Below, one piece after another: positions 3,411 to 53,669 of a stretch of 64,000 nt of DNA. The DNA comes from Dudresnaya verticillata. Lineage: Eukaryota. The stretch's first letter is position 1. The number at the start of each line of letters is the position of its first letter. The DNA lies in NCBI GenBank assembly GCA_977862235.1, contig OZ374565.1, positions 1,798,001 to 1,862,000 of the forward strand. The letters run 5' to 3'. The notes beneath the pieces are model-generated. The model ran no database searches. It saw only the letters and a list, made by a program, of their open reading frames with translations, and had not been told where the DNA came from. Both the position numbers and the translations under genes were made by a program.

Positions 3411-3416
3411 CGTGGA

Positions 3417-5448: not shown

Positions 5449-5454
5449 CTATAG

Positions 5455-5990: not shown

Positions 5991-8269
5991 TGCCTAGCAA
6001 GCTTACAATTTACGCCCGTGTAGTAATAGAAAGGGCAACAGTGTGGTTATATCTCGGAAATGGGCGCCGCTGTGGCGTTGCTGCGGAATCGTCAGGATCT
6101 AGGATCTCAGCAGTGCCCACTACAGGGTTGAAGATACAAAAGCCGATTCTCCAGCCATTGCTGTATTTTTGGTTCAACTGGATGTGCTTGTATTAGAGGA
6201 GTTGCGAGGATGGTCTGCGGGAGTCAGGGACGTATTTGTATGGCGAATTTGGTCGGGGGACAACATAGGCTAGGGCTGTACAGATCTCAACGACCCCGAT
6301 GCGGACAGTGTGCAAAATTGAGGCTGCGAAGCCGGAATATAGACATATCAGGCTCGCGATACGGGCAGCGATGGATTCAGAATGAACAACTATTTAAGAA
6401 ATTCCAGAACCTGACTTTTAAAACAGACTGGAGTCGAATAGCCAATTTATGATATCGTTGAAAATAAGAGCGTCACGTGAGTACGGCGGTGAGGCCCCAT
6501 TGCCCAACTGTCCATTTGTCCAAAGTTATGCCGGTTTGCATGCATTTACCCAAGATATTTCCAGGTTCGCCAAATTACAATTTCTTTGCGTCGTTTCGGC
6601 CCGCCCGGTCCACTCTATGGTTCGCACGGTGCCAAATCGGAACACCCGGTCCCCACCTTCCCCACGCGCTCGCCCCTCACGCCTGGATGCCACATCACGC
6701 CCCCATGGCAAACAAATCCCTGATTGTACCGTGCCACCCCGCGCAAAGCCCTGCAGATGCGTAGGCAGCGCAGTTTTTCCAGCCCGTAACCCCTTCTCGG
6801 CGCACCGGCTGCGCAGTACTGTGCGCGAACGTGCGCCCAATTGTTTGGACCGTCCGGTCCGGAACGCATATAGACTGACTCGCCACCTGCTTCACGCAGT
6901 CGCCCCGCGATGCCCATGACCATTGCTAACTGTACTATTGCGGGTGCCCACCCGCGCGCACTCTCTGATAACCACTACCGACGCCCCGTCGGCTCGCGCT
7001 GCCCATCGCGCCCCAGCCGCGCTGCACTCCCCCCATCGCCCGATGCCATTTATCTGTAAACGTTTCGGATTCTGTTCTTAACAAGCATTGCCAAGCGCCT
7101 ACGGCCATATGAGTCACGAAATACCCCTTCTTCCGCGCCATCTCAACTGCGCTTTGAAACGAATAAAATAGTTGAACACTGATAGCTGGCGAGCCGTACG
7201 CTTACGACACTTGCAAATTTGATAATTGCCGCAAGATTGTGAACGGTTTTGTCGAGAGAGACAAACCTGTAAACGTCCTTCGTTTAGAAGACAACCCCTC
7301 CGCTTGCTGAGCAGTTCTCTCATCGCGCGCAGTACCGACTCTGGAAACACCTACAAACAAGACGGGGTCAACAACAAACACAAAGTTTCGTTTAATACCC
7401 TTTACATCGAAACCCACTCAAGCCTCTGATTCAGCATCTTCCACTGCCCAATCTAATGCGACCTCCCAGCCCAGCAACCCTAACACATCCCTAGCTTCCC
7501 TCATGACCCCCTCTCCAACCTGCCCAACTCTCGCTATCATATGGTGTGCCCATCGCATGAGCTGGTCCCGGAGCCAGAACGTCGTATCCAGCCCAACCAG
7601 GCCAACTGCACGCGTCTCGATGACTTCAGCGCGGCGTGACCTGAGTTTCTCTGCTAGGCTTTCCGGAGCTTGTGGGAAGGTACTTTTTCGTCACGGTGCT
7701 GCAAAGTTGGTCCGGGATCATCGCGAGATATCATGTCCTTCATATACACTTCGCAGGTATGGTGCTGTTTGCAACGCGTGCATAGGCTGCTATTTCAGGC
7801 TGGTGCACATGATACTGGCCTCGTCATGCACAGAATATAACCCACACGGCAATTTTCAAAGCTTCTCGGTTGTTTACGACATTGTCTCGTAGGCCATGCG
7901 GCTGAATAGGCTTTGTTTCCAGCTCGTATCTTGATGCTTTCATGCGTTGAACAAAATTTGGCCGGTATAAGATGAGCTCCAACCTCAAGGACCAGTGTCC
8001 CAACCATGGTATTCTCAGAGACTCAGTGCTGGATTTCATAATACACAGCGGTACACAGAAGAATCGGCATAGATGCGTCCATGACAACAGATGGTGTCCG
8101 GTTCTCCGAGATTTCGACTGCGAAGCTTTCCTTGAGGCTCTTCGTATCTCATTGCAATAATCTTGTCACAGCTATACAGCACTACTACTAAATGGGCCAA
8201 TCTTCGGATCTGCCTCATCGACGTGCATCTCCGCATTCTAGACCAACAGTAACGCAGCAGCATTGCAAT

Positions 8270-8515
8270 AGACGTGCCCATGTGATGAACCGTATGTTGT
8301 GCACTCTGCACGCCCCGGAGACAGCCCTGTCGCCGTCAATTGCGGACACCACACAGAGTTTCTTGCGTGCTCATTTCAAGTTGGTCATCCACGGGGCAGG
8401 CCGACTGGACTGCGAGCTGCTCAAGGATTTTGCATTGTCTTGGTTTCATCACATCCACGTGAGTGATCTCGACGCATCGACGGCACCAACTTGAACAACC
8501 AGTTCCTGTTCCGCT
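8270..8515 (+). pseudogene. Fragment of a ubiquitin-like E1 catalytic subunit (UBA3/UBA2-like ThiF domain)
   Basis: KLVIHGAGRLDCELLKDFALSWFHHIHVSDLD, then after a frameshift IDGTNLNNQFLFR. This is a decayed form of LVIGAGGLGCELLK.LAL.GF..IHVID.D.ID.SNLNRQFLFR. Confidence 0.8.
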
Positions 8516-9054
8516 TATCATCAATGAATTACGCGATCTGCCACGCTTATCTTGTTGTTAAATTATCTATGAAGAGGTCTTGTTCCTTCTCGGCGCCGAT
8601 TCGATGAGACTGGAATTTTCTCAGTCGCAGTTGCACCCATGATACGTTTGTCTTCTATAGCCGGTTTCCAGTATGTTCACAATACAGTTCTGCAAAACAC
8701 ATGTGACCGGGGCAAGTTTGAAGCTTAAATATAGAGTCGCCAATGCCAGACAGCGGCGAATGTTTGATACCACAGTCTTCAATGTTTTGAATGGGACTTT
8801 CAAGATTTTTAGAATGCAATCCATAACCGTATATTCGAGGCCGTGCCGCTCGAAAAGGGAAGCCCATAACTGATGCTCATATAGCCACTAAAGTAGCTGA
8901 GGAATTCTTGATGTTCCGATTGGTAGGTGCTGATATTGCCAGCCAAGAACCTCAGGTTCTGAAGATTGCAGAAATAGTGGCGTTCCTGGCTGTCCAACTT
9001 CCTCTCCGTGTTCATTCAGCTCAACGAGTGAGCCTGCATTGGATGGTACCGCAG

Positions 9055-9161: not shown

Positions 9162-9165
9162 CTTG

Positions 9166-9790
9166 AACACAGATTTCCGGGTTTTCAGAATCTATGTTCC
9201 GAATCAGTCTGAAAAAATGTTAATGGAATGAAGATTTCTATATCGCGTTAGACTGGGGAGAGGGAGCTGAGAAGAATGGTGTAATCTGTTTCGCGATAGC
9301 ACGCGCGGTTGCGGAGCTACAGCATGCCGCATATACGGGTAAATGTCCCCGAAACTTTCGTGAAAGTTTCGAAACTTTCGGAATTTCAGAATTAAAATTT
9401 ACCCAGAAATTGCACTGCCGCCTGCTGCCCTCCCGGGCGCGCCTTGCAGCGCACCGACGCTCGTGCTTCAGCACGCTTGGCCCCGCCCGCCGCATCCCGA
9501 GCCCGCCCTGAGCTGTGTTCAAGGGCACAGTGCCGCCCTGCACGACTGGTACTGCCTAACTGCCAGGGTAAATCTGCGGTAACCCAGTCGTGCGCGGCGC
9601 TCACGCATTCACGTGCTGGTACCAGCACCACCCCTTCCCATGCCCATCATTCCACTCCAAGGTCCACTGCGGCGCGCACCTCGCGCAGCACCTCCTCCCC
9701 GCCTGCCATATCGCATCGCGCATCAACCCCAACACGCCCCGCCGCTGTCAACATCCCCACCCCGCTTCGCACCTCGCGCACGAACTCTAC
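9166..9790 (+). repeat. Left terminal inverted repeat (about 600 bp)
   Basis: Reverse complement of ~23185-23799 with scattered substitutions; ORFs 9238..9543(-) and 23491..23727(+) give near-identical translations. Confidence 0.93.
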
Positions 9791-9910
9791 TGCGCATCAT
9801 CGCGCATCAACCCCAACACGCCCCGCCGCTGCCAACGTCCCCACCCCGCCGCACACCTCGCGCACGAGCTCTACTGCGCATCATCGTGCATCAACCCCAA
9901 CACGCCCTGC
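9676..9910 (+). repeat. Subterminal tandem repeat, about 81-bp unit, about 3 copies
   Basis: CGCACCTCGCGCA...CATCG(C/T)GCATCAACCCCAACACGCCC is repeated; the right TIR has only about one copy. Confidence 0.85.
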
Positions 9911-9929
9911 AAGCAGAAGTCCCTCGAGT

Positions 9930-10794
9930 TGCGCAACTGATGCATTGACATGGGGAGACCACAACTCGATGCAGGTACAGGTGTGACAGCATAACGGTAT
10001 GTTGTATTGTTCTGCGTAAGTTAGCCACGCCCTGTCGATGATATTGTCTCGAGCACAGGTTTGGAATGAGGGCTAGTGAGATGAGTGAGATCTTCTGGGA
10101 ACAGGTTGAGTGCTTCATAGAAGCAGAAGGGCATTTGCTAACAGCGTTCAGGATGGGGCTGTTAGCGACAAAGGCACCCGATTACGCGGCTGCAATTACA
10201 GCAAAAGGTGCCCCTCTGCCGAGCTGCGTGGGTTTCATAGATTGCACAAACATAGACATGTGCAGGCCAGGAGGAGATGGAAGCTTGCAGCGTTGCTGCT
10301 ATTCTGGTCCACAAGCGCAAGCATTGCTTGTCCTATCAGACCATAGCAACCCCTGATGGGTTGATCTTTCACCTACATGGTCCTGAAGAAGGACGCCGTC
10401 ACGATCTCACACTACTCCGGAAGAGCGGTATAGGAACAATTATGGGGAGTAACATGGTCATAAATGGCGTGCAGTACTATATTTATGGCGATGCGGTGTA
10501 CATTATACGTCCCTAGCTACAAACCGCCTTTCCGCTCATAACGGCGACGACCGAGCAGGTCTCATACAACACTAGCATGAGTGTTTTGCGTGAAGGGGTG
10601 GATTGGAGTACAAGGATATCAAGCAAATGTGGTCGTCGCAAGATTTCAGGCGCATGCTGAAGGTCCGCGCCGCACCCATCGGACTACTCTACCAGCCTGC
10701 AGCCCTGCTCTGTAACTTGAGGTTTGTCTTAGACAGGGTGGACAAGTTGCACCTTACTTTGGTTGCAAAGCCCCATCACTGGACTCTTACGTAG
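9930..10794 (+). pseudogene. PIF/Harbinger-superfamily (DDE_Tnp_4 type) transposase remnant
   Basis: LRKLATPCR, CVGFIDCT, YSG.HKRKHCLSYQ, TPDGLI, GPEEGRRHD, IYGDAVY; interrupted by frameshifts and stops. Confidence 0.88.
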
Positions 10795-11082
10795 CATCAC
10801 CATAGGAAAAATAAAGTAAGCCGTACTACACTCCTCGACCGCCCGCGCGAAGCGCAAAAGGACGAGTAGTGAGGACCAAGTCCGCTCTCGCTCCGCTCGG
10901 CACTCGCCTCGCTCGGCGCGCGGACATGGGAAATCGCGGACGGGTGAATCGCGCGTTTTGGGGGTGACGGAGCGATTTGACACCACTTGCGGGACTTCAA
11001 AGGCGTTGGAAAGCCCACTTGCGACCAGAGTAGAAGCAGACACTTTACGGAAGCTTCGCCTCGAGTGCTGCAAGCATATCCA

Positions 11083-11338
11083 CTAAGCCTTTCCGCTCCT
11101 GCATCGATTGCTGCGTTCCTCTACCCCCACAGCGCCTTTCATCTCATCCAACTCGAGGCTGCGCTTCTGCAGGTGCAAAGACTCTGGAGCTTCGATCGGC
11201 TGCCGCTCCTCGCACTTCCGCTCTAGTTCGAAACGCTCTTCCTCCAACTTGAGCCGCATTGACTCCACCTCTCAACGTCGAACCATTTCGTCCATCATGA
11301 CCATAAAAGAGTTCATCAGCCTCAGTAAATTTACTCAA
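11083..11338 (-). pseudogene. E/R/K-rich coiled-coil fragment, possibly the Harbinger partner ORF
   Basis: RLKLEEERFELERKCEERQ; convergent to the Harbinger transposase; frameshifted. Confidence 0.4.
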
Positions 11339-11385
11339 CCCCTTTTTCTACTCTATCTATTCATTGCTATCACTTGACATTCTCA

Positions 11386-11700
11386 CTACACTATTAACTC
11401 CTCTTCATCTTCGCTGCTTAAGGGGTTCGTGCAGCTCCACAGCTCCGCGCATACCGAGCGCACAGCTCTGGCGACAGCCGTCCTAACCGCCGTCGCTTCC
11501 CGCCTCAAGTGGCTGTAGCAGTGCATGAGGAATTTGAATTCCTCCATGCACTCGCGAGCCTCCCTTAAACAGTCCTTCACGATGTCGCGCTGGGCGCGCA
11601 CATCGATGCGAAGTAGTACCACTTGTTCGTATGCTTGTCGGGTTGCGTTGCGGGTCATGGTAGGTGTTGGCTGTGCAGGGGAATACAGGTCGACTTCCAT
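11386..11700 (-). CDS. Small helical hypothetical protein (Sola cargo)
   Basis: ATG at 11700; amphipathic, protein-like composition with an acidic tail; no family recognised. Confidence 0.45.
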   Translation of the reverse strand: MEVDLYSPAQPTPTMTRNATRQAYEQVVLLRIDVRAQRDIVKDCLREARECMEEFKFLMHCYSHLRREATAVRTAVARAVRSVCAELWSCTNPLSSEDEEELIV

Positions 11701-12208
11701 CTTTAATTCTGTAGACTGTGGACTGTCGCAGACAAAGCCGGTCACCTGGTGGAGTTGGAGCAAGTATCTCAGCAGGGGTTGGGTGCGTCAAGTCAAGAGA
11801 TAAATGTCGACAGTAATGGAAATCCTTTACTGCTCATCTACATGGAAAAGTCCAAGTCCTTTTATTCGCTGTGACGTTCGCAAAAGGCAATGTGTCATGG
11901 CACCAATTCCTCAATCTGTGCACCTGGAACCATACGTTGCATTTGTTGGACCTCGTCTCGAAGTATTTTGGAATGCTCGTATGTCACGCGGATGTCGTCA
12001 CAGTTTACTTCTGGGGATGAAGGTACCTGTTGCTGGGTAAAAGTTGGACAATGCAGTGCCAGCAGTTTTCTTGCAGCCTTTAATGTATGGGAAGAGGAAA
12101 AGAACCCCTGAGCTCTCAAAGCAAGGAAACGACAGAGTATCCAATCGTTACTGCCTTTTTTTCATGGTGGTAGTAGTACTACTGCTGCTAATACCTTCAC
12201 GGAGCGCC

Positions 12209-12748
12209 TCATTCGTACATTCGAGTCAAATTGTTGACCTGAACTGTGAGATGCCTGACTTGCAGCAACCGCATCTCCCTTGCGGTGTTTTCATTCATCT
12301 CTACATATCTGGTCTTGAGTAATAGACGGAAGAACCGGTCCAAATGAAAAACCTCTTCTCCAGCCCCGTGGACTACCTCAGATATATAAGATTCCAGTAA
12401 CAGAGCATTTTCCCCTGCATAGCTTCCCTCCTTCACCATTCGGACTTTTCGGCGTAGTAGGCGATACAATTCGCTAAGAATCCTAGTCTCGTGTCTGTGG
12501 TTTCGCGCTTCAGCGTGCGACAGATTCTGGCAGAAACGTTGAAAAGCTTCACTGTCCATGCCCTCGACCAGTTCGATGCCTGATTCACTCAAAGCTTCGT
12601 GAGCCCACTGCCTCGACTTTCGGGCCATCTTCACGGACAAACTACCGTCAAATGTTTTGAACAGGGTATCAAGGCGATCCTCAATTGACTCGTCCTGGTA
12701 TTTTCCCTCGAATGGTGCCCCGTCGCGATCCACGCTAACAATAGACAT
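12209..12748 (-). CDS. Hypothetical helical protein (Sola cargo)
   Basis: About 180 open codons from ATG 12748 with protein-like composition; no family recognised. Confidence 0.5.
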   Translation of the reverse strand: MSIVSVDRDGAPFEGKYQDESIEDRLDTLFKTFDGSLSVKMARKSRQWAHEALSESGIELVEGMDSEAFQRFCQNLSHAEARNHRHETRILSELYRLLRRKVRMVKEGSYAGENALLLESYISEVVHGAGEEVFHLDRFFRLLLKTRYVEMNENTAREMRLLQVRHLTVQVNNLTRMYE

Positions 12749-12766
12749 GGTTGGTGAAATGTTTGG

Positions 12767-14360
12767 TTGCATAGACGAGAAGCGCATTGTGTAACATGCA
12801 ACAGTATCCTTGCTGCAGCAACTATGTTTTATATGACCCATAAAGATTACGACTGGAGTGCAAGATTCAGGGGGGTCAATTCCGATCAGGTAGCAACTGC
12901 TGGAAACAAGGACCATCCCTCTGATGGACAGATCGAACACGATGACGTTCCCTCTCCTCCTGTGAACGTAGATTCGTTACCTTGCAATCGAGACCTCGGT
13001 TCTACCGGAGACCATCACAATCATGATGCAGAAGATGTGCAGGAATCGGCTGTAAAATCTGCTGTGACGGTGAGCACGGAAAAATCGGAGAGGCTGGCTG
13101 TACGTGGGGATAAGAACGGACCTGAAGACCATTTGCAAGCTGATATCTTGAAGTCGTGCAGAATAACCTGCCATCAGATGCGGTGGCAGGTATACAATAA
13201 GAATATTCGCGAGGGTGTTGGTGACCTATAGGACATAGTTCTTACCGACAAACCGTATGGAACGCCTGAATCATAGTCTGGTGCACGGAAACAGTACGAC
13301 AACTATATGAGTGATTCTGAAATATCCGAGCTTGCAGAAATGTGCAGGGAATCCGTTGTACCGGGAGGGTGGGTGTTCATGTTCGTGTCCTACCAGACAT
13401 TCGAACCTATAAGGTAGGCTCTTCTGAAGGCCGGATTCACTTGCCCAACGTACGCCTTTTCGATTGCAAAGGATACAAACACGGTGCAGGAGAGGCGAGG
13501 AAATGACTGTCCCCAAAATGGCCACGAAATTGCCGTCATGGGAAGAGCCCCAGGACAACACCCCAATGGATTTAAAGTGGATCTTCGAAGCCCATATCAA
13601 TTAGTGAAGGCTTCGGAAAAGAGGAAGTTTGCGTGCATGTCTCAAATTCCCGTTTCTAAGAAGAAGCTCCTTAAACCGGGTACAAAATCCCCGGTGCTTA
13701 CTGAGGAGAAGAATGTTCAGCTGTTGGTGGAATTGTTGACGACCTTCTGCCCTGAGGGGGGGCATTTTGGACATGTACGCTGGAACGATGACAGCTGCAA
13801 TTGCAGCCGTGCAGACTGGTAGGAAATGCACCTGTATAGAGCAGAGCCTACAGACATACAGGCTTGCAGTTGCACGCCTGAAAAGGATAGCAAGTGATCA
13901 TCGCAAGTTGTCGGAAGGAATGGAAGGAACACCACTGTGCCATGGTACAGTGGAAGAGGCCCTGGGAGAAGACCAGGGAGCGGATGTGGAAAACCCGCAA
14001 CAGAAATTGCTCAGGAATGAGGCGAAGAAAAATTCGGATTGTATTACTGGCGGCGATGCAGTTGTTCTGTACGTTGGGAAGAACGCTGTTGGGAAGGCAA
14101 AAGTCCAATTCGGGGCAAGTTCTGATGAAAACTTTCGCAAGCAGATTCATCTGAAACCCCTGTCGGAATACGAAAAGCCAGGACAGGAACTCATTGCGCT
14201 GTATGCCTTCGAATGTGATTCATCCTTTGCCACCTCAGCATATCCGTATAGCTTTCATGTCCCGAACGGCCGCCCTTCCACGATTCTAAGTGAGCTAGAC
14301 GGATTTTTTGCATGGGATATCCATGCGATGAAAGTCCAGGAGCGGTGCGACCAGAAATGA
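12767..14360 (+). pseudogene. Beta-class DNA amino-methyltransferase (N6-adenine/N4-cytosine type) with extra C-terminal domain, disrupted
   Basis: Reading through TAGs at 13229, 13274 and 13415 and a frameshift at the G-run 13756-13762 gives DIVLTDKPYG...EMCRESVVPGGWVFMF...LLKAGF...HEIAV...EEKNVQLLVELLTTFCPEGG-ILDMYAGTMTAAIAAVQTGRKCTCIE...YRLAVARL. Motif IV precedes motif I. Confidence 0.85.
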
Positions 14361-14852
14361 GGGTAAAGCAGAGTTGAGCATAATAATCGTTCGCTTCACT
14401 AGTTTCCTACGCCATAGCGCAATATCTCAAGCCATATTCACATGCTACTCCTCGCTGGAGACCCTGTACTGCCACCGACAGCGCTATCCCGGTATAAGTC
14501 CACAGCGCAAAAGTTGCATCATCGCTCGGTCCCATTTCCGCAGCAACTTCTCTTTCACAATGTCGGATCTGCAGAGTTCCATCGAATTGTAGCTCTTGCA
14601 GAGCATGGGATGAATGTCGAGCGGCATGGAAGATCTGCCAACAAGCATCTACAGGAATGATGCATCCACGGCCCCGGAAGAGTAGTAGTAGCGAGGCGGG
14701 TCGGGTCACAGTACTGTGAGAATATCGAGAGCTTCGATTTGCAGGTAGGTGCACTCGAGCAATACACTAGCGTCTCATCGCGGGACGAGTGCCCGCAGTT
14801 CCGAAATTACTGTAATCGCGTGAAAACCTATCCAATATTATGGAGAATGACC

Positions 14853-14999
14853 AACAGCTTTTCGGAAAGCCGCACGTAAATTTCTATTAAACAGCATATA
14901 CACTGTACGAGATCTGAAAACCTATGATAGGTTTTCCGAAACGCGAGAGCTGATGTGCTGTTTAATAGCTTTTTGAATCTCACTGGTCGAAAAGATGTT
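14853..14999. repeat. Imperfect 147-bp palindrome centred on 14926
   Basis: Symmetric arms at 14916-25/14927-36, 14884-96/14956-68 and 14853-64/14988-99. Confidence 0.85.
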
Positions 15000-16469
15000 A
15001 TAAGTTTTGCGGTTGCCTCGGGCCAAACACCTTTTTGATAGAAACTACGTTTGCTCGACCCCAGGACCTATTCCATATTATGGAGAATGCAAGATAGCTT
15101 TTCAGGGCGCGCGGCATAACTCTCCAGGATTTTTTCCGCGAGATTTATCGCTGATTCCCTTCTAGGACTTTTCTTTCGGAACACCTGGGTCCCTCCACCC
15201 GTCCGGTTGTTGGCCAGCGCCCTCCCATATGAGATTGCGTTTGCAATCAGGAACAGGGTGCACCGTGGTGATACAGCTAAGTCTTGAACTTGAAGTGACG
15301 AACCGAAAAGTTGGCGGTGCCTGCGTTCCGTTACAGACTCCCGGATCTGCAAAGCGTAATACGGCCCTGTGTTCTTCCTGACCTGCCATTGTCTTCTCAA
15401 AATGGGGCACTCAACAGCAGCATATATATTTGAGATGTCTGTGAAGTTTCATGGGAATGTTCTGAGAGATTAGGGGACATTCCGGTCAGAGAGGGCAGAA
15501 AGAAGCTCGCCTCGAGAGCCGGCTTGACGGCCAGAGCCTGGTATTTCCATAAGTATGTAGTCCGTTTTGTGAGCAGCACTGCATTTCCAATCCCGGAGAA
15601 GAGGCCAATTGACGGAGTACGCTTCAACCTGATGCATGGGATGAGGCAACAAAAAATGCAGTTCTTCCCTCAAACGCAAGGCCGTCTGTGTGCTGTTGTA
15701 TCACAACTGTTTCAAGTGATTCTAGCCAGACAAGCTTGTCTGGACTTGTCTCAAGCAAAATGCTCTAAACGTATCGGTCTGTATCCGGGCACCACACGAA
15801 TCCTCTTCCGCTTCCCGCGAGGCTGCTGTGATGCTTCCTTCGTTGTTTGAAGATATCTCAGTTCTGTAGCTCTTGATGAAACAATTCGTGACGCATAAGG
15901 ACACGTAGGCTACCTATATTTGTTTAGAGCTGAAGGATGAGTCGTCGCGGACGACACCGATCAGGCAGTGGCCCATCTGGCAGCTGCGACTTCAGTTTCC
16001 ATACATAGTGACACTTGCATCGAGTCATTTTCACGCCATGGAGACTCTCGGGGCGTGGATACTTGTATCCATTGCATTTCCGAAGTGCTTCTTCATAATC
16101 CTGTGCCCATTTCGGTTGGTGCCAGTCCGGTTCAGACCCTAAACGTTCGTGGCGATCTGTCGCCCATCGCAGGACGAACTTAACTATTCGTTAACGTGCG
16201 CGTTGCTGAGCGCGTGTTGACTATGCAGTGTATAGTCTGCACTCTTGAGCAGTGTAGATAGAGTGTGAGTGTGTACTTGTGGAGCAAACACTGTTAGGTC
16301 TCGTTGGAAACGTACCAGTTTGCTCGCGAATGGCCGCACAATGCTCTTGGGGCTTGTTCCAGCGGAAAGGCAACCTAGATGGAGCGGGAAACGGCTCGGG
16401 TCGTGAAGTGCGCTCAGACATATTTACTAATGGCGGCTACCGTGCCATGGAGGTTCCGGAACAGATCTT

Positions 16470-16739
16470 CTAGGATTCGGAGCGAGAGGATCGTGGGCTG
16501 GATTGGGTCTCCACGGATGTCATCACAGTTTCCAGGGCAAACATAGCCTGCGATAAGGCCAATGTTATACTGCGATGGACCCGATGGAAGACACTGCCAA
16601 CCATGCGCAGAACCGCTCGCTGCAGACGGGCAACCAGCTGACTTAGCTCATGCTGAGCGCTCCTAAGTTGCTGGAATTCTTCTTCAAGCTCAACGAGTTG
16701 CGCTTCGACATCTTCAAGACTTATGTCATCCGTTTGCAT
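16470..16739 (-). CDS. 89-aa coiled-coil hypothetical protein (Sola cargo)
   Basis: Heptad pattern LEDVEAQLVELEEEFQQLRSAQHELSQL. A homologue is split between 26186-26271 and 5728-5920. Confidence 0.65.
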   Translation of the reverse strand: MQTDDISLEDVEAQLVELEEEFQQLRSAQHELSQLVARLQRAVLRMVGSVFHRVHRSITLALSQAMFALETVMTSVETQSSPRSSRSES

Positions 16740-17011
16740 TAGGCTTGTTCCGTGACTTCAGACTCCTCGTTTCTGCGCGCAAGGTGGCTCTGCAAAGCCG
16801 CGATATGTACCCTTGCATCTGTACGTTTCTCCTGGATGAAGACAAGCATACGGTTGATTCGACACACAACTGGCCACCCTAGTCGTTGAAGCTCACGCGA
16901 CAAGTACGATACCGTCTCCCGAATGGTCCTGATCTCCCCCTGTAGTGTAGCTATTCTCTCCTGAGCGGAATGCAGCCTCCCTTCTCTTGTCTTTTGATAC
17001 ATGTTGTGCAT
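16739..17011 (-). CDS. 90-aa coiled-coil hypothetical protein (Sola cargo)
   Basis: Its stop overlaps the next start (TAATG). A homologue is split between ~61991-62140 and 26271-26401. Confidence 0.65.
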   Translation of the reverse strand: MHNMYQKTREGRLHSAQERIATLQGEIRTIRETVSYLSRELQRLGWPVVCRINRMLVFIQEKRTDARVHIAALQSHLARRNEESEVTEQA

Positions 17012-17775
17012 AAGGTATAGTCTGGAACGTTTGTCTCACGGCTAACTTCAAATTTGCAGACTGGTACTTGATGCACAGGTTGGTGCATGTTCGCAAACTG
17101 GTGAAAAGCCAGCTGTAGCCCACGGTAGCTCATTGGATTGACTTGTCCTTCTTCTGCAAGAAAACTCACGGGGCATCGAGACGTAAACATCAACGCAGCC
17201 GGCAGCCGGGGTTGTACTTCTCGGCCCATTTCGCTGCTATTTCTTGTCCTTGACGTCCATCAATACTACCCGCTTGTGGTCGCATGGCGGAATAGAGCAG
17301 TCTGCACGGCGTACCCTTGCAATACCGAGTACTGCTTCTTGATTGACGGGGACTCCAGATTCGCGACTTGTCCGTTCTGATTGGTAATATGGCACGCTCG
17401 TCTCTCGAATCAGACTGTTTTGTTCGCACTGGCGCTATAGTGTATGCCGGAATGGAGTGGTGCATACAGAGCGAGAGGGAAGCCCTTCCAATACCAGTCG
17501 TTTTAACTGCGATCCGTAGCAACTCTGGGCATGCGCAAGCCTGTCATGCAGAACGCCCCACCGCCACTGGAACAGTATTATATCGGTGTCGTTTCAGAAG
17601 CGCCCTCGGCCCTCCCGAATATTTCAGCTCTTCAGAACAAGTAGCGCACAACTATCGCGCCCTAGCGGGAACATCGATTTTGTTGCTTCACTTCGCCCGC
17701 CCTGAGTGCAAAGAGAATATTGCACTAGTGAATTGCAAAAGGCTCAGACTCCCCTGCCGAAAGGGATAGTAGGAC

Positions 17776-18354
17776 ATGGCCCAAGCCTCATCTAGGCAGG
17801 TTTCGAAAGCAGCAAACGTTCCAGTTCAGAACGACGACGACTTCGGCGATGAGCTGCTTCCCGGAACAAAGCCCGGCGGACGAGTCATGCTCACACTCAA
17901 CGGGGAACACGTTACTATAGCAACCCTGCTACAACCTCATGATTTTAGGGAGGGTGCCGTTGATCCCAGTGGTGGATTCAGCACATACCTGCACGGGCGC
18001 AACCTTGGGCCTCAACAAAGTGATGGAGAAGTATGGGTTGTAGTTCATCTCGTGCGATGCCTCCACAACTGCAATTCCTACGACAACTCGTTCCAGTTCA
18101 AACCAGGCAGTACGCCTTGTCCGGAGACACTGAGTCGAATGCAGACTGGAAAACACGCCTGGGACCTATTCCAGATTGAGGATCTCGTAACCACCTACAA
18201 TACAGAGCAAAGAAAAAGCTCAGGTGCAACTGTCTCCGGAGTGGAAAAACGTGCGGTGGCTGACGCTAACCCACCAACACCCCCTCTGCTCAGGGTTCGC
18301 AAATCCGCTCCTCACCAAAAACGGCAGCATGGTGCGGAGAAATTGCAGCGGTGA
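17776..18354 (+). CDS. Probable N-terminal segment of the transposase gene (small beta-rich domain)
   Basis: Overlaps the transposase ORF by 4 nt. Conserved in the second copy at ~62890-63470. Confidence 0.6.
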   Translation: MAQASSRQVSKAANVPVQNDDDFGDELLPGTKPGGRVMLTLNGEHVTIATLLQPHDFREGAVDPSGGFSTYLHGRNLGPQQSDGEVWVVVHLVRCLHNCNSYDNSFQFKPGSTPCPETLSRMQTGKHAWDLFQIEDLVTTYNTEQRKSSGATVSGVEKRAVADANPPTPPLLRVRKSAPHQKRQHGAEKLQR

Positions 18355-20828
18355 AAAGCCCTTCAACACCACCGCCAGAGAAAGGCAATGAAGAGGAAGA
18401 AGTCACAAAACGTCTGCAATACACACCTGTACGCCGACCACCTATGCGTGAACGACCCCAGAAACCATCCAAGAATAACGTCCCGGACGCCTTACCAGTC
18501 TCTTCGGCCCCAGTGTCTCTTGAACCCACGACTACACCCATGGAAGAGAGAGGTCCTCGTGTAGGCGTGACAGACAGAGGCGATGCAGATCTGAAACAAA
18601 ACTCTGCTAGGGCTGTCGGATCTATTCCTTCTCGAGGAAAAGGAGGAAGCGACGAAGAGAACTATATCACGCCCCAGCCATGCCCTGCACCCAATGTCAG
18701 ACGTACGCCTGAAAGCAGTTCGGGTTTTAGTAGTGGCGCACCAGAACCCGACCCTGGTGCTACCCCGGCGTTGGCCGCGAGTACTAACACAAAGGGTGAC
18801 GTGGAACGAACGCCAGGTGCTGATGGCTCGGAAATAGAGCACGGTGAGGAGCAATCAGATGCTGCGACGTTGGATCTGGTGAGCGACGCAGAGGTGAAAG
18901 GTGGAAGTGATGGAATATTAGAAGACGAAGATACTGGAAGCGACCAGGAAATTGAGGACCTCACCAAGGACGCGGATTACGTGCCGAGTGCGACAATTTC
19001 ACGAAGACGCACGGCAGCGTATGAGGCTGAACGGGTCCCGCAAACGCCCAGAGCTGCTGAGGATGAGACCAATGGCTCCCGAAAGAGAAGGTACCGCTTC
19101 TACGCAACACAAAGAAAGAAGTTGAGGGTTGGTGATACTGCATTGCAAAAGCGTCGCAATGCTGCTCTGGAAAGGCTTGATGAAGAAGACTGGGGCTCCA
19201 AGGAGTGCTGTATGCGGAAGCAATGCTTCAAGAGGGTATCGATTGTGTACATGAAAGCCGAGATTCGCAAACTGTTGCGTATGGACGCCCATGATCGACG
19301 AAACTATTTGCACGGGTTGTTGCAGCGAGCGGGATGGAATTATGACTTCGACGGTAAGCCAGTATGCTACACGTTCCTGGAGAAGGCGTGTGGGTTTTCC
19401 AGGGACCTGAAATATTCAGTCAAGCAGTTTGGTGGAAGCCGGCCTATGGAGGGTGACAATGCCGTGCCGTATCAGCCTCCGAGTGAGGGCAGGGATAAGA
19501 TACTGAGTTACCTCAACCGGCTTGCTGAGATAACAGCAAGCTGCATGCCCGACGCAGATGAGAAGCATCTGCCGTACTTTGATAAGGCTGCGGTCTACGA
19601 GAACTTCCTTCTGGACCAGGAGAGACTGTATCCTGGAAAAGCCCCGCCTCGACTAAACTACTTCTACCACGTCTGGAAGCAGCACCGCAGTGACATAAAA
19701 GTCCGCAAAATCCAACGCTTCACAAAGTGTTCAGAGTGTGAAGAATTTCGTGCTGGACTTTCCAGGGCCGGTACAAACCGCAGACTTGCGGAGCCGTTCC
19801 TGCTCCGTATAAAGGAGCACTACAAGTTGGTTACAAAGGAGAGGGTGTACTACAGGGAGAATACGGAAAAAGCTACTTTGTATCCCTCCGAGCACTGTTC
19901 ACTGATAATTGATGGCGCGGACCAGAAAGCGTTCGGAGTACCAAAGTTCGTGGTCAGTACGAAGGCTACGCGTGGACATGCCATAGCAACCAAAGTTGTG
20001 GGCGCATTGGAACACGGTTCATTGAAGCACCTATCCCTATTCGTCATGACAGGAGAGTTTGAGACCGGCGCAAATCACATGATCGAAACAGTCCATCGCC
20101 TTCTCACAGTCAAGCATAACCATGGCACTCTGCAGCCTACGCTGTTACTGCAGCTAGACAACTGCACCTGGGAGAACAAAAATAAGTACATGCTTTCTTA
20201 TCTGGAGTGCTTAGTCGCGTGGGGTGTTCTGCATGAAGTGCAAGTTTCCTTTCTTCCAATCGGCCACACCCATTCTGACATCGACCAGGCCTTCAGTTGC
20301 ACAAGCAAGAGGGTCCGATCAAAAGACATGCCGACTATGTCTTGCTTTCTCCGCGAACTAAGCATGTTATACACGCCTCGTCCATCGGTAGCAAGGTTGC
20401 TGCAGGTAGCCAACTTCTCCGGGCTGTGTGACAAGTATGCGTGTATTGGAAAGAATGAAGCATTCTCACACTACAGATTCTTTCGTATTACTCGCCAACG
20501 AGGTAAGGGAATGGGCAGAAAAGCGAGATTACGCATGCGATGCCTCGTCAAGATTCAGTGTGGATATGAGTGGAAACCACTTGTAACAAAAGCACGTGGC
20601 AACTCTCTCAAACAGGAAGGCTTCATACTATTCACCACTGACCTCTTTAAGACGCCACAGACCATAGCGCGATGCCCACCTGATATGAAGGAGGTCAATT
20701 ATGGCATACGTTGCACCGAAGTGCGAGCGCTCAAGGCGTCGCAGATCGCCGAACTGGAAAATCTTAGGGATCACGTCTATAGAGATCGAAACGAACCTTT
20801 TCACTGGGACTTGGATCACGCCCCGTAG
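18351..20828 (+). CDS. Sola-like DDD transposase
   Basis: CCMRKQC..VCYTF and KCSEC cysteine motifs; putative catalytic motifs IIDGADQ (~19911), LQLDNCTWENKN (~20157) and FLPIGHTHSDID (~20280). Confidence 0.88.
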   Translation: MKSPSTPPPEKGNEEEEVTKRLQYTPVRRPPMRERPQKPSKNNVPDALPVSSAPVSLEPTTTPMEERGPRVGVTDRGDADLKQNSARAVGSIPSRGKGGSDEENYITPQPCPAPNVRRTPESSSGFSSGAPEPDPGATPALAASTNTKGDVERTPGADGSEIEHGEEQSDAATLDLVSDAEVKGGSDGILEDEDTGSDQEIEDLTKDADYVPSATISRRRTAAYEAERVPQTPRAAEDETNGSRKRRYRFYATQRKKLRVGDTALQKRRNAALERLDEEDWGSKECCMRKQCFKRVSIVYMKAEIRKLLRMDAHDRRNYLHGLLQRAGWNYDFDGKPVCYTFLEKACGFSRDLKYSVKQFGGSRPMEGDNAVPYQPPSEGRDKILSYLNRLAEITASCMPDADEKHLPYFDKAAVYENFLLDQERLYPGKAPPRLNYFYHVWKQHRSDIKVRKIQRFTKCSECEEFRAGLSRAGTNRRLAEPFLLRIKEHYKLVTKERVYYRENTEKATLYPSEHCSLIIDGADQKAFGVPKFVVSTKATRGHAIATKVVGALEHGSLKHLSLFVMTGEFETGANHMIETVHRLLTVKHNHGTLQPTLLLQLDNCTWENKNKYMLSYLECLVAWGVLHEVQVSFLPIGHTHSDIDQAFSCTSKRVRSKDMPTMSCFLRELSMLYTPRPSVARLLQVANFSGLCDKYACIGKNEAFSHYRFFRITRQRGKGMGRKARLRMRCLVKIQCGYEWKPLVTKARGNSLKQEGFILFTTDLFKTPQTIARCPPDMKEVNYGIRCTEVRALKASQIAELENLRDHVYRDRNEPFHWDLDHAP

Positions 20829-20875
20829 ACGAATGGGAGCTGTGAAGGGACAGTAGACAGCATAGAGACCCCGAA

Positions 20876-21256
20876 ATGCTTCCGGAGATACCAGAAGTGG
20901 AGCAACAACCCGCACAGGACATAACCTACAGCCACAACAGAATGGTGGCCGTCAATTATGTTCAGGCAACCGAGCAATGTCCTTTTTACGTGGCAAAATT
21001 GATGGAAGTTGTGACAGGGGACGATGGAAGGTTTCGAAATTGTTGTTGCGGTGGTATGAAGCCAAGCACACCGGTAATGTTTTCAGTGCAACTTACAAAC
21101 CTTCATTCTACAAAAACCAGGCGCGGGGTCGCAAAGGAATGGGAAGGAGACGTCACCGTTGATTGCGTACTTGTGGAGTTCGAGTCGCTCACCAGGAATG
21201 GCAGGCTACCAGTTTCTGTGCAGAAGAAGTTGCGCGAGTGCCTTTACAAGCAGTAG
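20876..21256 (+). pseudogene. Frameshifted transposase C-terminal beta-barrel (BAH/SH3-like) domain
   Basis: MVAV..PFYVAKLMEV../KLLLRWYE../W..DVTVDCVLVEFESLTRNGRLP, assembled across two frames. Confidence 0.6.
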
Positions 21257-21468
21257 CATCCACAACATTTCACGCCCGCAGCCAGATTGATAGCAACGAA
21301 TAGATAGAGTACTGAGAAGGTGTAAATCTAGGTGTGTAAATCTACTGAGACAGAATGGAAAGTTAACCTTATGTCTTCTGTAAGCTCACTTCGCACTTGT
21401 CTTCAGTCGCGATGCTATCCGCGAGGGGGCTGCTGCGGTGAGTGTCTCATGAACTTGTGCAACAAGCG

Positions 21469-21957
21469 CTAGAATATTGACTCGGTGTTGCTCGGCATCC
21501 TCCGACTTCGTACGTCCCATTTGCAGTCCAAGGAAGTTTCCTCTCGGCTCCGCAATCCATGCGCCTGCACGAAGAGGAGGGATGATGAGAGGTAGCGTAC
21601 TAGGCCGGTCGGTGCAACAGTGATGCGCATTAAAATGCCCAGCTCAGTGGCTGGTGGGTTCCTCCATGGAGGTGCAGTGCACTGAAAGAGGTGATTGAGG
21701 AATGGAATTCCCGCTTCCAACGCGGAACAAAGTTCCGCAAACCGCCCGATGGAATCCTGCACCCATTCAGTGTCGGAAGGTTCATCATCTTGTACGTGAT
21801 GCATGCGCTCGTTCGTGTCCATGTTTTCCTGAATGGCAGAAAGGGCTCTTGCTATCCATTTTCGCCCAAATTGGCTATCATTAGCTTGGACCGACTCTGC
21901 GTACCAGTTGACTAGTTGGGTATTCCGCTCGGCATGCGAGAAGAGCAGCAAGGTCAT
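21469..21957 (-). CDS. Hypothetical protein (Sola cargo)
   Basis: 162-codon ATG ORF with protein-like composition, convergent with the transposase; no family recognised. Confidence 0.35.
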   Translation of the reverse strand: MTLLLFSHAERNTQLVNWYAESVQANDSQFGRKWIARALSAIQENMDTNERMHHVQDDEPSDTEWVQDSIGRFAELCSALEAGIPFLNHLFQCTAPPWRNPPATELGILMRITVAPTGLVRYLSSSLLFVQAHGLRSREETSLDCKWDVRSRRMPSNTESIF

Positions 21958-23184
21958 GGAAACCTGTTGCTTTGTTGCTCTCCTCAGCGATGGGAAACAG
22001 GTAGTACTGGTATGTGCCGCGACTGACAGAAGTGGCGGAGATGACTCGTTCCGAATGAGTCCGTGTCGCCTGCGTAACTAAGGATGCGAATCTCTGATGT
22101 TTCCCGACCAACCATGACGGTTTCGGCTGCAGTATCCGAACTGACGCTAAGCTCTGAAACATGAGATTGCTGTGGTTGTAACTAGGGTATTACTTGACGC
22201 GAGCTACAAAAGCCCAACTGTACGCGGAGTTTGTGGGCAGCTACGATTTCCCCTGTAAGATGAGCCCAGTTGTTGCGCTTCTGCTGCTTTCTGAATTCGA
22301 GAAGGCTGAACAAAAGCAGCTACTGAATTTCTGTGAATTGCCGCATGAGCATACCCACGTATTGGGATAGGGTTGGGTCTTGCCGGATCCGCTTCACGCC
22401 CTTGGCGACAATTTCGGTAGATTGAACCTGCTCCCACATTCTCTTCCCAGCGAAGAACATATACCCCATTAATGGCTGCCTTCTTCTCAGGCTTTAGATA
22501 TATTTCAAAACGCCCATGACAGATGCGTGCGCGCATCAAGGCTGGTATCTCTGTCGTGGGCACATCTGCGACGGCCCCTAACCTTACGACATAACGATTC
22601 CTGCCAACCGCGGAAAAAGGACCTGGTACCTCTGGCTAAGGTAGAGATTTACCAAGTTAGGAAACAGATCACTGTGAAACAACGCATCTTGTAACTTGCG
22701 CCATCCCTATTGGCACTACCCATGCACTGAAAAGGCCGTCGCAGGCGCTAGCTCGCTGCAACGGCTTGGCTGCGCTTCCTCGCTTCTTCTGGAGATTCCT
22801 GGTTATCTGTCGCTCTGAACAGGTGGAGCCGTTCTGTTTGCAGTCCTGGAAGGCTGCTGATGCCTCGTACCCTACATCACGCCCGGTCTGCTCACGCATG
22901 AGCTCATCAAGCACAAAATATGCAACCGGGACACCCGCAACTGGTCCGATAAACGGGACGCAACGCAAAAAGGCATCCCATGGCACATATACAGCAGCAA
23001 TACCGCACTTGAGCGGTCCATAGTGATGAAAAGCCAAGACGTGGCGTTCTGCATAGCCAGGGAAGCCTGCCGTTCACGCGTGGTCATGATGGCGTAGTAT
23101 TGTGGTGGACTCACTGGCGCGCATGGCGGCGCGACTGGAGGTCGCAGTGAGGGCGGGTGGTAGATGCAAGAGGGAGTCGCCTAT

Positions 23185-23799
23185 TCGTACAGGCGCGGCG
23201 GGGTGGGGATATTGGCAGTGGCGAGCCGTTTTGGGGTTGATGCGCGATGCGATATGGCATGCGGGGAGGAGGTGCTGCGCGAGGTGCGCGTCGCACTGGG
23301 TCTTGGATTGGAATGATGCGCATGGGAAGGGGTGGTACTGGTACCAGCACCCAGAGTGGAATGATGGCCGCGCACGACTGGGTTACCCCAGATTTACCCT
23401 GACAGTCAGTCAGTATCAGTCGTGCGGGGCAGCACTGTGCCCTTGAACACAGCTCAGGGCGGGCGGGGGATGCGGTGAGCGGGGCCAGGCGTGCCGAAGC
23501 ACGAGCGTCGGTGCGCTGCCAGGCGCACCCGGGAGGGCAGCAGGCGGCAGTGCAATTTCTGGGTAAAATTTAATTCGGAAATTCCGAAAGTTTCGAAACT
23601 TTCACGAAAATTTCCGGGACATTTACCCGTATATGTGGCATGCTGTAACTCCGCAACCGCGCGTGCTATCGCGAAACAGATTACACCATTCTTCTCAGCT
23701 CCCTCTCTCCAGTCTAACGCGATATAGAAATCTTCATTCCATTAACATTTTTTCAGACTGATTCGGAACACAGATTCTGAAAACCCGTAAATCTGTGTT
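23185..23799 (-). repeat. Right terminal inverted repeat
   Basis: Inverted copy of 9166-~9790. Confidence 0.93.
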
Positions 23800-23803
23800 C
23801 TTG

Positions 23804-25912
23804 GAAGGATTCAAGTATGTTTCGCAATTTTGGGTCGGCCTCTCGTTCTTGCTCGGTGCTTCGGGAAAGGTTGGAAATGTCTCGGACCCCGAAAATGACT
23901 ACAGCCTTCTTTCTACGGAATCGTCGGAACTCCTTCACAGACATATTTGTTACTTGCACCGGTCGTTCCTCTGTCTTTCTTGGAGCGAACAAGACCGCAC
24001 CATCTATTTCTATACTCTTGGACTCATAATCCACCCTTGGATGAACATCTTGATGCCACGGCATACCCAGGATCACATCATGTCGTACGTCCGCAACTAC
24101 AAACCTAGAACGATATTTGTGGTGCTTAATCTTGACCTCGGCTTGCTCAACTACTATACAGCTTTCTTCGGATACCTTAGAATTAGAATGACGAACCGTA
24201 ATCTGTTGGTCAACTTGGACTCTCTTAAAGGCACAGCGATGTTGCTTCCAATAGGAATGCGAGATAACGTTCGTAGAACAGCCATCATCCTTGAGAATCT
24301 CCACTGTACGACCATCCAAACAGCCCCCAGTACGAATAATGGCTTCAAGGGAACCTCTTGTTTGTTGCCATGAAGTCGAGGGGGCTTTTGAACTGAATCA
24401 GGAACAGGAGTAGCACCAGAAATATCCGCGGTAGACTGGACGGAACGACGGTTGGACGTTGCAACAGCAAGGGCAGCATCAGCCCCGGAGGCAAGAACAG
24501 GATTTAGAAATGCATCAGTTAAGCCCACAGCGGCATCATACGTAGCATCACGCGCAGAACGAAGACAGACATCAGATTTTGTACGAGCAGAATAAACAAC
24601 AGAGCTGCTAGACTCAGACTCCAAATAAGCGTCCCGGGCAGATTGAGTCAGAGTTGGAGCAAATTCATCAGGGACAAGACTCGAGAAAGCCTCTCCAGGC
24701 TCAGAAAACGTATCACGAACACTATTAACAGTATTACTGCCAGCCTTGGGACCATCTTGAGACCCATCATTGGTGACATGTGCACCAATGTCAACGAGAG
24801 TTTCACAAACGGGATAAGAACACTTATCGACGGATTCTGGGTTTAGGTTAGCATGGAACATGGGAACGGAAGCATGCGGGAAAACGGGAAGAATCTCAGG
24901 GATTGTTATAGACTTGGCGGCTGCAGTCTCGATGTATAATTTACTATATCCCCCACCCAGACCATGGGTGGCGCTTGGGATATTGAAGGTTATGCGCCTT
25001 GGGGGGTTGCCTTTTTCCTGTCCCTGATCCAATTTAATCCCGGCATTGTTAATCTTGGCATTCGCAGCAGCCCTAGCAGAGCAGGTCGATATCCTACACC
25101 CAGCCTTATGACAATAGAAGCAGGTATTGTCTCTCAAATCTTGTTGGCGTTGGGCATCTCTCCTGGATTGCACGTTGGAGATATCCATTGGAACCGGCCC
25201 GTCAGAGCCCGAATTACTCTTCTGAGGACGGGTGCTGCTACCACTGGTGTTGAAGGAATGAAATTTCCTTTCGAGGCCTCCACCCTTAACGCGTCAGACA
25301 GAATTTGGTTCAGATTTTCAGACTCCTTCGTACATAGCTCTGTCCGAATGTATTTCTTGAGGCCCTGAAAGTATCGGTAAATCGACTCTTCAGCTGATAT
25401 ACTGGGAATGTCCATAATGATCTTCTGAAACACGTTGTTGAACTTCGAGACCGTGTCGTTTTGACGACATACTGCGAGCTTGTCTCGAGCTGCTTTTACC
25501 TTGTTAATAGGACTGAAGCGTTTCAACAGAAGGTTCCGTAGTTCCTCCCATGATTTGCACTCAGTGCTGGACTTCGTTACATGGTACCAATTGTAGGCGT
25601 CATTGATTAGGTAACTAACGGCCACGCCTAGCCTTTGATTTTCAGGGACCTGTTGTAGATACAGGTCCACATGGCCTACGAAGGATTCAAGAGATTCATC
25701 CTTTTCCCGGAGAAAGGGGACGGTTTGTTGAAGTAATTCTTAGAATGGGGCATCTGGGGAATCGCTTCTGAATTCTGCACTTGCAATCGTAGAGCACTCA
25801 ACTCTGAGTACATTTCTTCCATCTTATGAATCATTTCAGTTACTGAGGGGCCTTCATTCAATGAAGGGGGAGGAATACTCATGGTTCCTGAGACCAGTAG
25901 CGATGCTGCCAC
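23804..25912 (-). pseudogene. Gypsy A gag and aspartic protease, frameshifted; PBS at ~25894-25911
   Basis: Gag (AYNWY, SWEEL, RQNDTVSKF, FQGLK), degenerate knuckle CFYCHKAGCRISTC, protease LKDDGCSTNVIS..DVILGMPW. PBS reads TGGCAGCATCGC. Confidence 0.9.
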
Positions 25913-26185
25913 TTAAACAGTAGCGAGATATAACGGTAAAATAGAGTAGAACAGGAACGGAATACCGGACTTTACTTCTGGAACTGAAATTAGCATCAAG
26001 ATGCCCCCCTTTCCTTGTCATTCCTCAGATGGGCTACATATACCCATGCAACTTGCTCTATCCTCTCTAATTCTCTATCACCTATCTATCTTTACTGTGT
26101 AACGAATGCTCCCTCGATATGGCATATCGAATCCCTTCTGGAATATCGGCATCCGTGGCCCCCCGATACAATGTGTACTGTTACA
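25913..26185 (-). repeat. Gypsy A 5' LTR (273 bp)
   Basis: Inverted copy of 5455-5727, flanked by ATGAG (= CTCAT on minus) at 26186-26190. Confidence 0.92.
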
Positions 26186-26401
26186 ATGAGCGTCCTAAGC
26201 TGCTGTAATTCCTCTTAAAGTTCAACGAGTTGTGCCTTCAAGTCTTCGAGAGTATTGTCGTACATTTGCATCATGCTTGGTCGCTGAATTTGGAATCCTC
26301 GTGTCTGTCGAGGAGGTGGCGCTGCAAAGCCTAGGTATGTGCAATTATTTATGTACTTTTCTCCTGGATAAAGTTAAGCAGACGGTTGATTTGACACACA
26401 T
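26186..26401 (+). mobile_element. Fragment of old Sola-family copy
   Basis: Homologous to ~16655-16868 (VCQINRLLNFIQEK vs VCRINRMLVFIQEK). Confidence 0.82.
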
Positions 26402-32218: not shown

Positions 32219-32223
32219 AGAAG

Positions 32224-48923: not shown

Positions 48924-49119
48924 GCGTAGAAATGCCACTTGTCAATAAAATCTTGTGACTTTTGTTAGCCCCCCTTCCAGTGGCGGAGGGGAAGTGGAAT
49001 AACACCACTGTGGAGTGAGCTCCGCAGTGGCGGGGGTACCCTACACCCTACAAGTCTTTGCGTCCAGTGGGCGACCACTTCATACCAGAAGTGGTTGCTT
49101 GCTTGCCACCGATTCACCA

Positions 49120-53667: not shown

Positions 53668-53669
53668 CC

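Follow-up and report, generated by a model that had tools for sequence, protein, structure and literature searches.

What is the 14,634-bp insertion at positions 9166-23799 of a 64,000-nt stretch of Dudresnaya verticillata DNA (contig OZ374565.1; the whole stretch is called the window), and does the methyltransferase (MTase) gene that it contains belong to its lineage or to random cargo? The best explanation, which we hold with considerable confidence, is that the insertion represents a giant DNA transposon of the Sola1 group in a broken state, likely red-algal and likely mobilised in trans, from a lineage that likely carries a ParB-methyltransferase gene and picks up host DNA.

The transposase gene (17773-21256, plus strand; DUF7869, E = 1.7e-42) is spread over three frames and measures 3,484 bp, or 23.8% of the element, in agreement with the preliminary description of this locus, which allotted about 3.5 kb to the transposase and the remainder to cargo. 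An N-terminal β-barrel (17773-18354) and a C-terminal domain in another frame (20846-21256), both located by comparison with relatives, flank a core (18270-20828) carrying the residues D305, D387, and D427-D429 (codons at 19911, 20157, 20277, and 20283). The core is open for 852 codons with no stop, but the gene is frameshifted at both ends, and the copy is thus likely non-autonomous. At E ≤ 1e-10, 62 proteins match the core with 33-52% identity (7,996 candidates scored). The comparison with hidden Markov models covered parts of the supplement of PMC5751038, namely Sola1 columns 82-124 (43 of 124), Sola2 columns 135-160, and Sola3 columns 94-119. Core residues 383-425 align without gaps to Sola1 columns 82-124, with 47 bits before transition costs, and this profile stretch reads D-n-c-a-g-q-N-k-n ... 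I-e-l-k-f-l-e-p-g-H-s. In the same parts, the Sola2 motif w-h-F-f-a-t-s-h before the third acidic residue is not matched, the window reading VQVSFLPIGHTH (columns 135-160), nor is the Sola3 motif d-n-a-G-c-Y at the second acidic residue, where the window reads DNCTWENKN (columns 94-119). The Sola membership proposed earlier is thereby upheld and narrowed to Sola1, and the sequence of the transposase supports the element being a Sola1 DNA transposon.

The AlphaFold model of the transposase, with a predicted local distance difference test (pLDDT) score of 86, has D305 and D387 each terminating a strand, and D427/D429 opening the helix that follows; by our own reading of its secondary structure, the model would have the RNase H-like strand order, as in RNase H-like transposases. 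In the Atlas, the protein groups with eukaryotic DUF7869 clusters. We built a quick tree from 92 cores of 148 candidates (the others had too little core, and no named Sola references were included), in which the transposase lies within a 53-row clade with a Shimodaira-Hasegawa-like approximate likelihood ratio test (SH-aLRT) support of 100, beside P0001, P0002, and P0005 with a support of 88. Five short GTDB contigs contain relatives with 29-37% identity, probably as eukaryotic contamination of metagenome-assembled genomes, and 90 pattern matches among viral contigs yielded none that was confirmed. One compact relative of 3.7 kb (L001:356-4099) shows an inverted repeat of ~30 bp and no clear target site duplication (TSD); its contig is binned as Bacteroidia and is probably eukaryotic DNA.

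The element is bounded by terminal inverted repeats (TIRs) of ~600 bp. The left arm begins with AACAC (9166-9765, plus strand) and the right arm, defined by the inverted-repeat alignment, finishes with GTGTT (23198-23799, minus strand). In the alignment of 9166-9770 with 23193-23799, 558 of 602 columns (92.7%) are identical with two gaps, and the arms are by far the longest inverted repeat of the window. Counted by eye, the outer 300 columns contain 11 differences, with the remainder lying further inward; the inner end of the left arm holds 2.3 tandem copies of an 84-bp unit (9714-9910, plus strand, 93%). Copies of CTTG are located directly outside the left end (9162-9165) and the right end (23800-23803), and the flanks have these 4 bp and no more in common. 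The insertion context is a dead chromodomain Gypsy, whose protease-side frame (23756-24397, minus strand; RVP_2, E = 1e-6) and reverse transcriptase (RT)-side frame to the left of 9165 are colinear and continue in the same phase across the site, provided that a single copy of the 4-bp repeat is counted. The long TIRs, the flanking CTTG, and the Gypsy frame restored on excision, all described previously, are confirmed by these measurements. The previous description also had the whole 14.6 kb moving as one unit. The TIRs and the TSD establish that both ends were inserted together, and this part stands, whereas the presence of every internal piece aboard does not follow from them. The transposase would bind the 600-bp ends and excise the whole 14.6 kb, and judging from Sola biology and the flanks, insertion into the Gypsy would very probably have proceeded by cut-and-paste with a 4-nt stagger. 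The data do not separate mobilisation in trans from decay after landing.

The host Gypsy also retains gag (25137-25739, minus strand; Pfam) and an integrase tail with the chromodomain (4561-5445; Pfam), and we detected no RT, RNase H, or integrase core between its pieces with Pfam. Its long terminal repeats (LTRs; 5455-5725 and 25915-26185) are identical at 256 of 271 positions, 5.5% apart, and point towards one another, so that a segment of roughly 4530-8690 must have been inverted; the Gypsy integrase tail and 3' LTR in this inverted part of the window have the wrong orientation.

The other main component is a pseudogene of a ParB-methyltransferase accessory protein (12881-14360, plus strand), comprising a β-class N4/N6 MTase and a C-terminal β-barrel, with 40-48% identity to P0090, P0091, P0092, and P0097 (E to 1e-84). 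Read through with X, 12758-13783 gives a β-class N4/N6 methylase with DKPY as motif IV and three TAG stops; motif I and then the C-terminal domain follow after one frameshift. Among the homologues fitting the motif pattern, motif IV is DPPY in 24 and DPPF in 2. An altered genetic code, considered because all three stops are TAG, was rejected: the stops at which 18 long frames end or are broken comprise 8 TAG, 8 TGA, and 2 TAA, and the MTase stops align with differing residues in the homologues. A search of longer proteins (1,381 candidates) gave four homologues with 47-52% identity that carry PF01555. Full-length homologues of 887-1010 amino acids contain an N-terminal DGxHR ParB-like region and PF01555, and most have the same C-terminal domain. 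The profile scores of the ParB-like region are weak (DndB, E = 0.014; DGQHR, E = 0.069), and the putative ParB label is taken from the DGxHR motif and the Ectocarpus paper (PMC12477816). Residues 1-440 of the homologues have no match in the window, nor is there a ParB profile match, which suggests that the ParB half was lost from this copy. At the position expected for it lies an unassigned open reading frame (ORF) of 255 codons (182 from Met; 12209-12976, minus strand) with no significant match in Pfam, NCBIfam, PHROG, or PDB sequences. The best PDB sequence matches of the MTase family profile are DNA methyltransferases of both the adenine-N6 and the cytosine-N4 type, and these solved relatives do not tell whether the product would be N6-methyladenine (m6A) or N4-methylcytosine (m4C).

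The methylase recurs beside related transposases elsewhere. We compared 22 distinct sizes of MTase contigs (four clusters, the largest with 15 of 19 members) with 88 sizes of transposase contigs. Among the matches listed, 9 of the 22 equal a transposase-contig size, whereas jittered sizes (n = 20,000) yielded 0.18 matches on average and never more than 4. Restricted to MTase contigs of at least 5.5 kb, 8 of 11 have the same size in bp and the same source as transposase contigs, again among the matches listed, with sizes of 11,236, 11,185, 9,936, 8,748, 8,494, 7,875, 7,554, and 5,994 bp; the ninth match (3,394 bp, with differing sources) is treated as chance. The matched pairs are P0089 with P0001, P0090 with P0005, and P0091 with P0002, and P0001, P0002, and P0005 belong to the same subclade as the window transposase. 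In the locus set (80 of 131 confirmed metagenome loci and 5 GTDB loci), a ParB-like and/or methylase gene is clear in 4 of the 14 loci whose sequence reaches 1.5 kb or further upstream of the transposase gene, namely L009, L010, L015, and L017, of which L015 and L017 are near-copies of each other. Because L009, L010, and L017 served as seeds for the profiles, what counts as independent support is Pfam PF01555 in L009 and L010 and tblastn to L015/L017. By Pfam, PF01555 stands beside the transposase in L009 (1.9e-18), L010 (1.5e-7), and L042 (1.8e-8), the last with its methylase piece downstream. The pairing recurs at 28-33% transposase identity, and the extra domains of the accessory proteins differ, with SET in L010 and OTU in L015/L017. 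The methylase is thus probably an accessory gene of the lineage and not random cargo. This recurrence, together with a 2.4-kb internal block common to an older copy, sustains the cargo-carrying lineage proposed in the preliminary description.

Two of these loci show distinctive arrangements. L010:1332-5743 is a methylase-SET gene, probably intron-containing, located upstream of the transposase on the same strand, and resembles Plavaka PAG2. In L017:711-4283 and L015:3-1151, an OTU deubiquitinase domain lies ahead of the ParB-like and methylase parts beside a Sola1-like transposase.

The methylase and the transposase are also connected by a domain of ~100 amino acids, which is C-terminal in the close methylases and N-terminal in several of the close transposases. 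Both copies are present in the window (E = 1.5e-22 and 7.4e-8 with a profile made from relatives only). It is confidently predicted to be a small β-barrel (pLDDT 91). The model has no Foldseek match at E ≤ 0.001, and its best VIA matches (Z 4.6, root mean square deviation 3.2, 56 aligned) are generic SH3/Tudor/PWWP/CAP-Gly barrels; since all its neighbours are of this generic SH3-like sort, we assign it to no family and no function.

What the methylase does for the element bears on the strongest rival explanation, according to which it is a promiscuous passenger among giant algal transposons (Plavaka, Mutator, Zisupton, and Sola) without specific benefit. This concerns function only, is compatible with the Sola1 identity, and has a sizeable though minority probability. 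PF01555 accessory genes are reported to move among red-algal transposon families (the Bostrychia preprint, bioRxiv 10.1101/2025.02.11.637652), the methylase label needs seven changes on the transposase tree, and the gene is dead here; the ParB-MTase family is also large, with 929 representatives at E ≤ 1e-10, and is therefore probably not confined to Sola. However, the closest MTases pair with the closest transposases, the two proteins have the terminal domain in common, and the pairing appears again at low transposase identity and in a brown alga. In a self-marking mechanism, the ParB-like domain of intact relatives would bind the DNA of the element itself, and the β-class methylase would write m6A or m4C on it. 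Such marking would most likely serve to keep the element expressed or to time its transposition. Self-marking has also been published as a hypothesis, and we put it forward tentatively, at slightly less than even confidence. A broader proposal is doubtful: the Sola1 transposase and the ParB-methyltransferase could form an old co-inherited self-marking m6A/m4C module of red algae, brown algae, and other microbial eukaryotes, with the red-algal barrel directing the two proteins either to a common chromatin mark or to one another, and with the elements shuttling host fragments in the manner of Pack-MULEs.

The remaining cargo raises the question of whether it ever moved. A Harbinger-type transposase remnant with several stops and frameshifts occupies 10042-10800 (plus strand; DDE_Tnp_4, E = 4.6e-7, or 1e-7 read through with X), and neither ends nor a TSD of its own were found. 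On the right-hand side, a decayed and truncated DUF639 (PH-like) gene fragment (21431-23096, minus strand; 50-66% amino acid identity in the best segments) corresponds to residues ~194-814 of a 922-residue homologue; it has lost an internal part, contains several stops, and changes frame at least four times. Of the 18 matches to this right-hand 1.7 kb, 17 carry DUF639, and the two that are named come from Gracilaria domingensis and Agarophyton chilense; these red-algal homologues suggest a red-algal lineage and make the fragment likely a captured piece of a host gene. The MTase remnant, the Harbinger piece, and an imperfect palindrome (14884-14968, 76% over 87 nt) were all in the cargo list of the earlier reading and are all present. 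The small ORFs listed with them are also present, but the right-hand ones turn out to be parts of the single DUF639 fragment. The palindrome belongs to a decayed, unassigned region (14361-16450) with a 240-bp-period repeat, which at 14826-15103 produces two similar minus-strand peptide stretches with the palindrome in between. An ORF of 133 codons (11386-11787, minus strand) is unassigned, its only match being to a spurious-translation NCBIfam entry (E = 0.025), with none in Pfam. The ORFs at 11386, 12209, 14330-15910, 16470-17035, and 17347 have no significant Pfam, NCBIfam, or PHROG match, and ~5 kb of the element has no assignment.

A motif of ~58 bp with a 24-bp core divides the element. 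Its left copy lies at 11315-11372 (minus strand) and its right copy at 21288-21354 (plus strand), immediately behind the stop of the transposase. The motif has 2 matches, compared with 0 in 100 shuffles, and scores 60, where shuffled sequence reaches 35 at most. The methylase and the transposase lie inside this pair, and the Harbinger and DUF639 pieces lie outside. The motif may be what is left of the inner part of a once longer TIR, in which case cargo was inserted close behind the ends; it comes after a stop codon on both sides and may be a common 3'-end signal. While the transposase core is free of stops, the DUF639 and Harbinger pieces are riddled with them, which suggests that both were already dead at the last move. 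They would probably have been gained earlier, just inside the TIRs, and carried along in a decayed state.

An older copy of the element, copy B, is also present in the window. It has 16454-18864 (plus strand) in common with the element, with 73-77% nucleotide identity over most of the length, a block that includes two coiled-coil-like minus-strand ORFs (16470-17035) and the 5' part of the transposase. The Gypsy and a nested block of 35.6 kb divide copy B into three pieces: 5743-5933 (minus strand, inverted, matching 16454-16642, 76.6%), 26187-26400 (plus strand, matching 16654-16868, 76.9%), and 61988-64000 (plus strand, matching 16862-18864, 72.7-86%), the last of which leaves the window within the transposase. 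The young element thus sits in a retrotransposon that is itself inside an old relative of the element.

These surroundings invite the alternative that a Sola1 of normal size reached 14.6 kb only after landing, by nested insertions and rearrangements, and that the cargo never moved. The window is indeed heavily nested and includes an inversion as well as the 35.6-kb block. The Harbinger piece is of foreign origin, and the left cargo is absent from copy B. However, no ends or TSDs were found for the internal pieces of the element, the methylase accompanies related transposases elsewhere, and 1.3 kb upstream of the transposase gene are common to the element and the diverged copy B. In addition, decay has gone much further in the DUF639 fragment than in the transposase core, although the LTRs of the host Gypsy differ by only 5.5%. 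We consider growth in place improbable. Very unlikely is a sister lineage with a Sola-like transposase but another insertion chemistry, with GAACAC termini and a 2-bp TT duplication, for although the inverted repeat gains one base at 9165/23800 if extended, the 4-bp CTTG and 2-bp TT readings give the identical empty site (an ambiguity recognised at the outset that persists), and the target is CTTG and not AWWT, such a one-base extension has a chance of 1 in 4 and is forced if the target is symmetric, Sola2 elements likewise have 4-bp TSDs (PMC3627910), and the 4-bp reading is favoured because the giant Sola1-1_Ec32 of Ectocarpus starts with AAC and has a 4-bp TSD (PMC12477816).

Several observations weigh against a giant, methylase-carrying Sola1 lineage. 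The family is known from one complete copy here, and none of the 85 loci of the locus set shows complete ends and a clear TSD. The profile match covers 43 of 124 Sola1 columns and was compared with one part each of Sola2 and Sola3. The sole target site seen, CTTG/CAAG, differs from AWWT, a target preference described as a Sola1 hallmark (PMC3845634), though such a preference shows only over many sites; for the TSDs of Sola1-1_Ec32, the description goes no further than a bias towards ending in A (PMC12477816). Size matching is indirect, with the contig DNA itself unseen, and the MTase cluster P0092 has no matching transposase contig. No ParB or MTase was found in 8 of the 14 loci with sufficient upstream sequence, and 2 more (L012 and L027) are weak. 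To the left of 16454, copy B and the element show no similarity; either part of the lineage never had the left cargo, or copy B lost it. The block common to both copies shows little codon periodicity.

Other features of the window lie outside the element. The 35.6-kb block (26405-61985) has CACAT at both edges and contains a nested long interspersed nuclear element (LINE; 28193-30506) and two LTR elements; at its right end there is a weak RT match (59718-60404, E = 9e-5), with a C-terminus that we take to resemble a CRE-type restriction-like endonuclease. A young chromodomain Gypsy (45338-57092) with 678-bp LTRs of 99.3% identity apparently lies within an LTR of an older Gypsy (32223-33128; 44937-45341 plus 57093-57578), and its long plus-strand ORFs at 45843-48923 (525 and 500 codons) have no Pfam match. 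A decayed UBA3/ThiF E1 enzyme-like fragment at 8330-8520 (plus strand; ThiF, E = 0.013) is possibly another captured host piece. The region at ~6390-7060, AT-rich and then GC-rich, is built like a long TIR and is probably the end of another element; as a copy of the TIR of the present element it was rejected, its score lying within those of shuffles. At 9-3691, inverted arms (9-259 and 3441-3691, 80%) surround a LINE-type endonuclease fragment (2283-2753, E = 3.7e-9).

The closest described system is Sola1-1_Ec32 of Ectocarpus, a 21.5-kb element with AACCG-CGGTT termini, a 282-bp TIR, a 4-bp TSD, and a ParB-methyltransferase (PMC12477816). Both elements exceed 10 kb and have a long imperfect TIR, AAC...GTT termini, an N4/N6 methyltransferase accessory gene, and extra genes. 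In contrast, the present element measures 14.6 kb with a TIR of ~600 bp, the two being set apart here by description and not by sequence. Its methylase is on the same strand as the transposase, instead of the opposite one as in Sola1-1_Ec32, and survives only as a truncated, dead gene. The host is probably red-algal, and a fragment of the conserved DUF639 gene is aboard. The ParB-like part is on the accessory protein itself in Sola1-1_Ec32, whereas here it is found only in the closest intact homologues. Giant families with pseudogenised transposases are reported in the same paper.

Plavaka PAG2 and PAG3 are accessory genes that occur in giant EnSpm, Mutator, and Zisupton elements of red algae (bioRxiv 10.1101/2025.02.11.637652). 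As here, these are giant red-algal DNA transposons with a PF01555 methylase and a ParB-like domain, for which modification of their own DNA is proposed. However, Plavaka belongs to the EnSpm superfamily and has methylase-SET and ParB-2OG-oxygenase fusions, whereas the present element is a Sola1 whose ParB and methylase parts would form one protein ending in a β-barrel; by Pfam, no SET is found in the close MTases, only in the distant L010. Canonical insect Sola1 elements have the same transposase type, TIRs, and a 4-bp TSD, but are shorter than 3 kb, with TIRs of 19-36 bp, AWWT/AWDT targets, and a single gene (PMC3845634). Sola2 is known to carry Fanzor (PMC3627910), the accessible part of PMC6431247 makes no mention of Sola, and PMC4738411, PMC12973397, PMC4455052, and PMC3985635 provide context only.

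Like a Pack-MULE, the element carries a host-type gene fragment, DUF639, between TIRs, but it has a Sola1 transposase remnant and flanks with 4 bp in common only. Pack-MULEs hold host gene fragments between long TIRs, are mobilised in trans, and depend on Mutator transposase with a TSD of ~9 bp.

A giant Sola1 with a ParB-methylase is thus already known from one brown-algal family (PMC12477816). Among its top-ranked results, a literature search outside Repbase and most subscription journals showed no red-algal Sola1 with a methylase and no Sola1 host-gene capture. The probable red-algal lineage, the host-gene capture, and the β-barrel common to methylase and transposase are probably new. Since this copy is dead and its kind is published, the gain lies in range and testability. 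Self-binding, self-marking transposons are hardly known, and VANDAL is the only one named, in the accessible text of bioRxiv 10.1101/2025.02.11.637652, as shown to bind and mark its own DNA. With the present locus and its relatives, the pairing of a Sola1 transposase with a methylase now reaches a clade that is probably red-algal, as well as distant microbial eukaryotes. They also indicate that fragments of conserved host-type genes can travel in such elements, and the intact methylase proteins P0090 and P0097 are candidates for assay.

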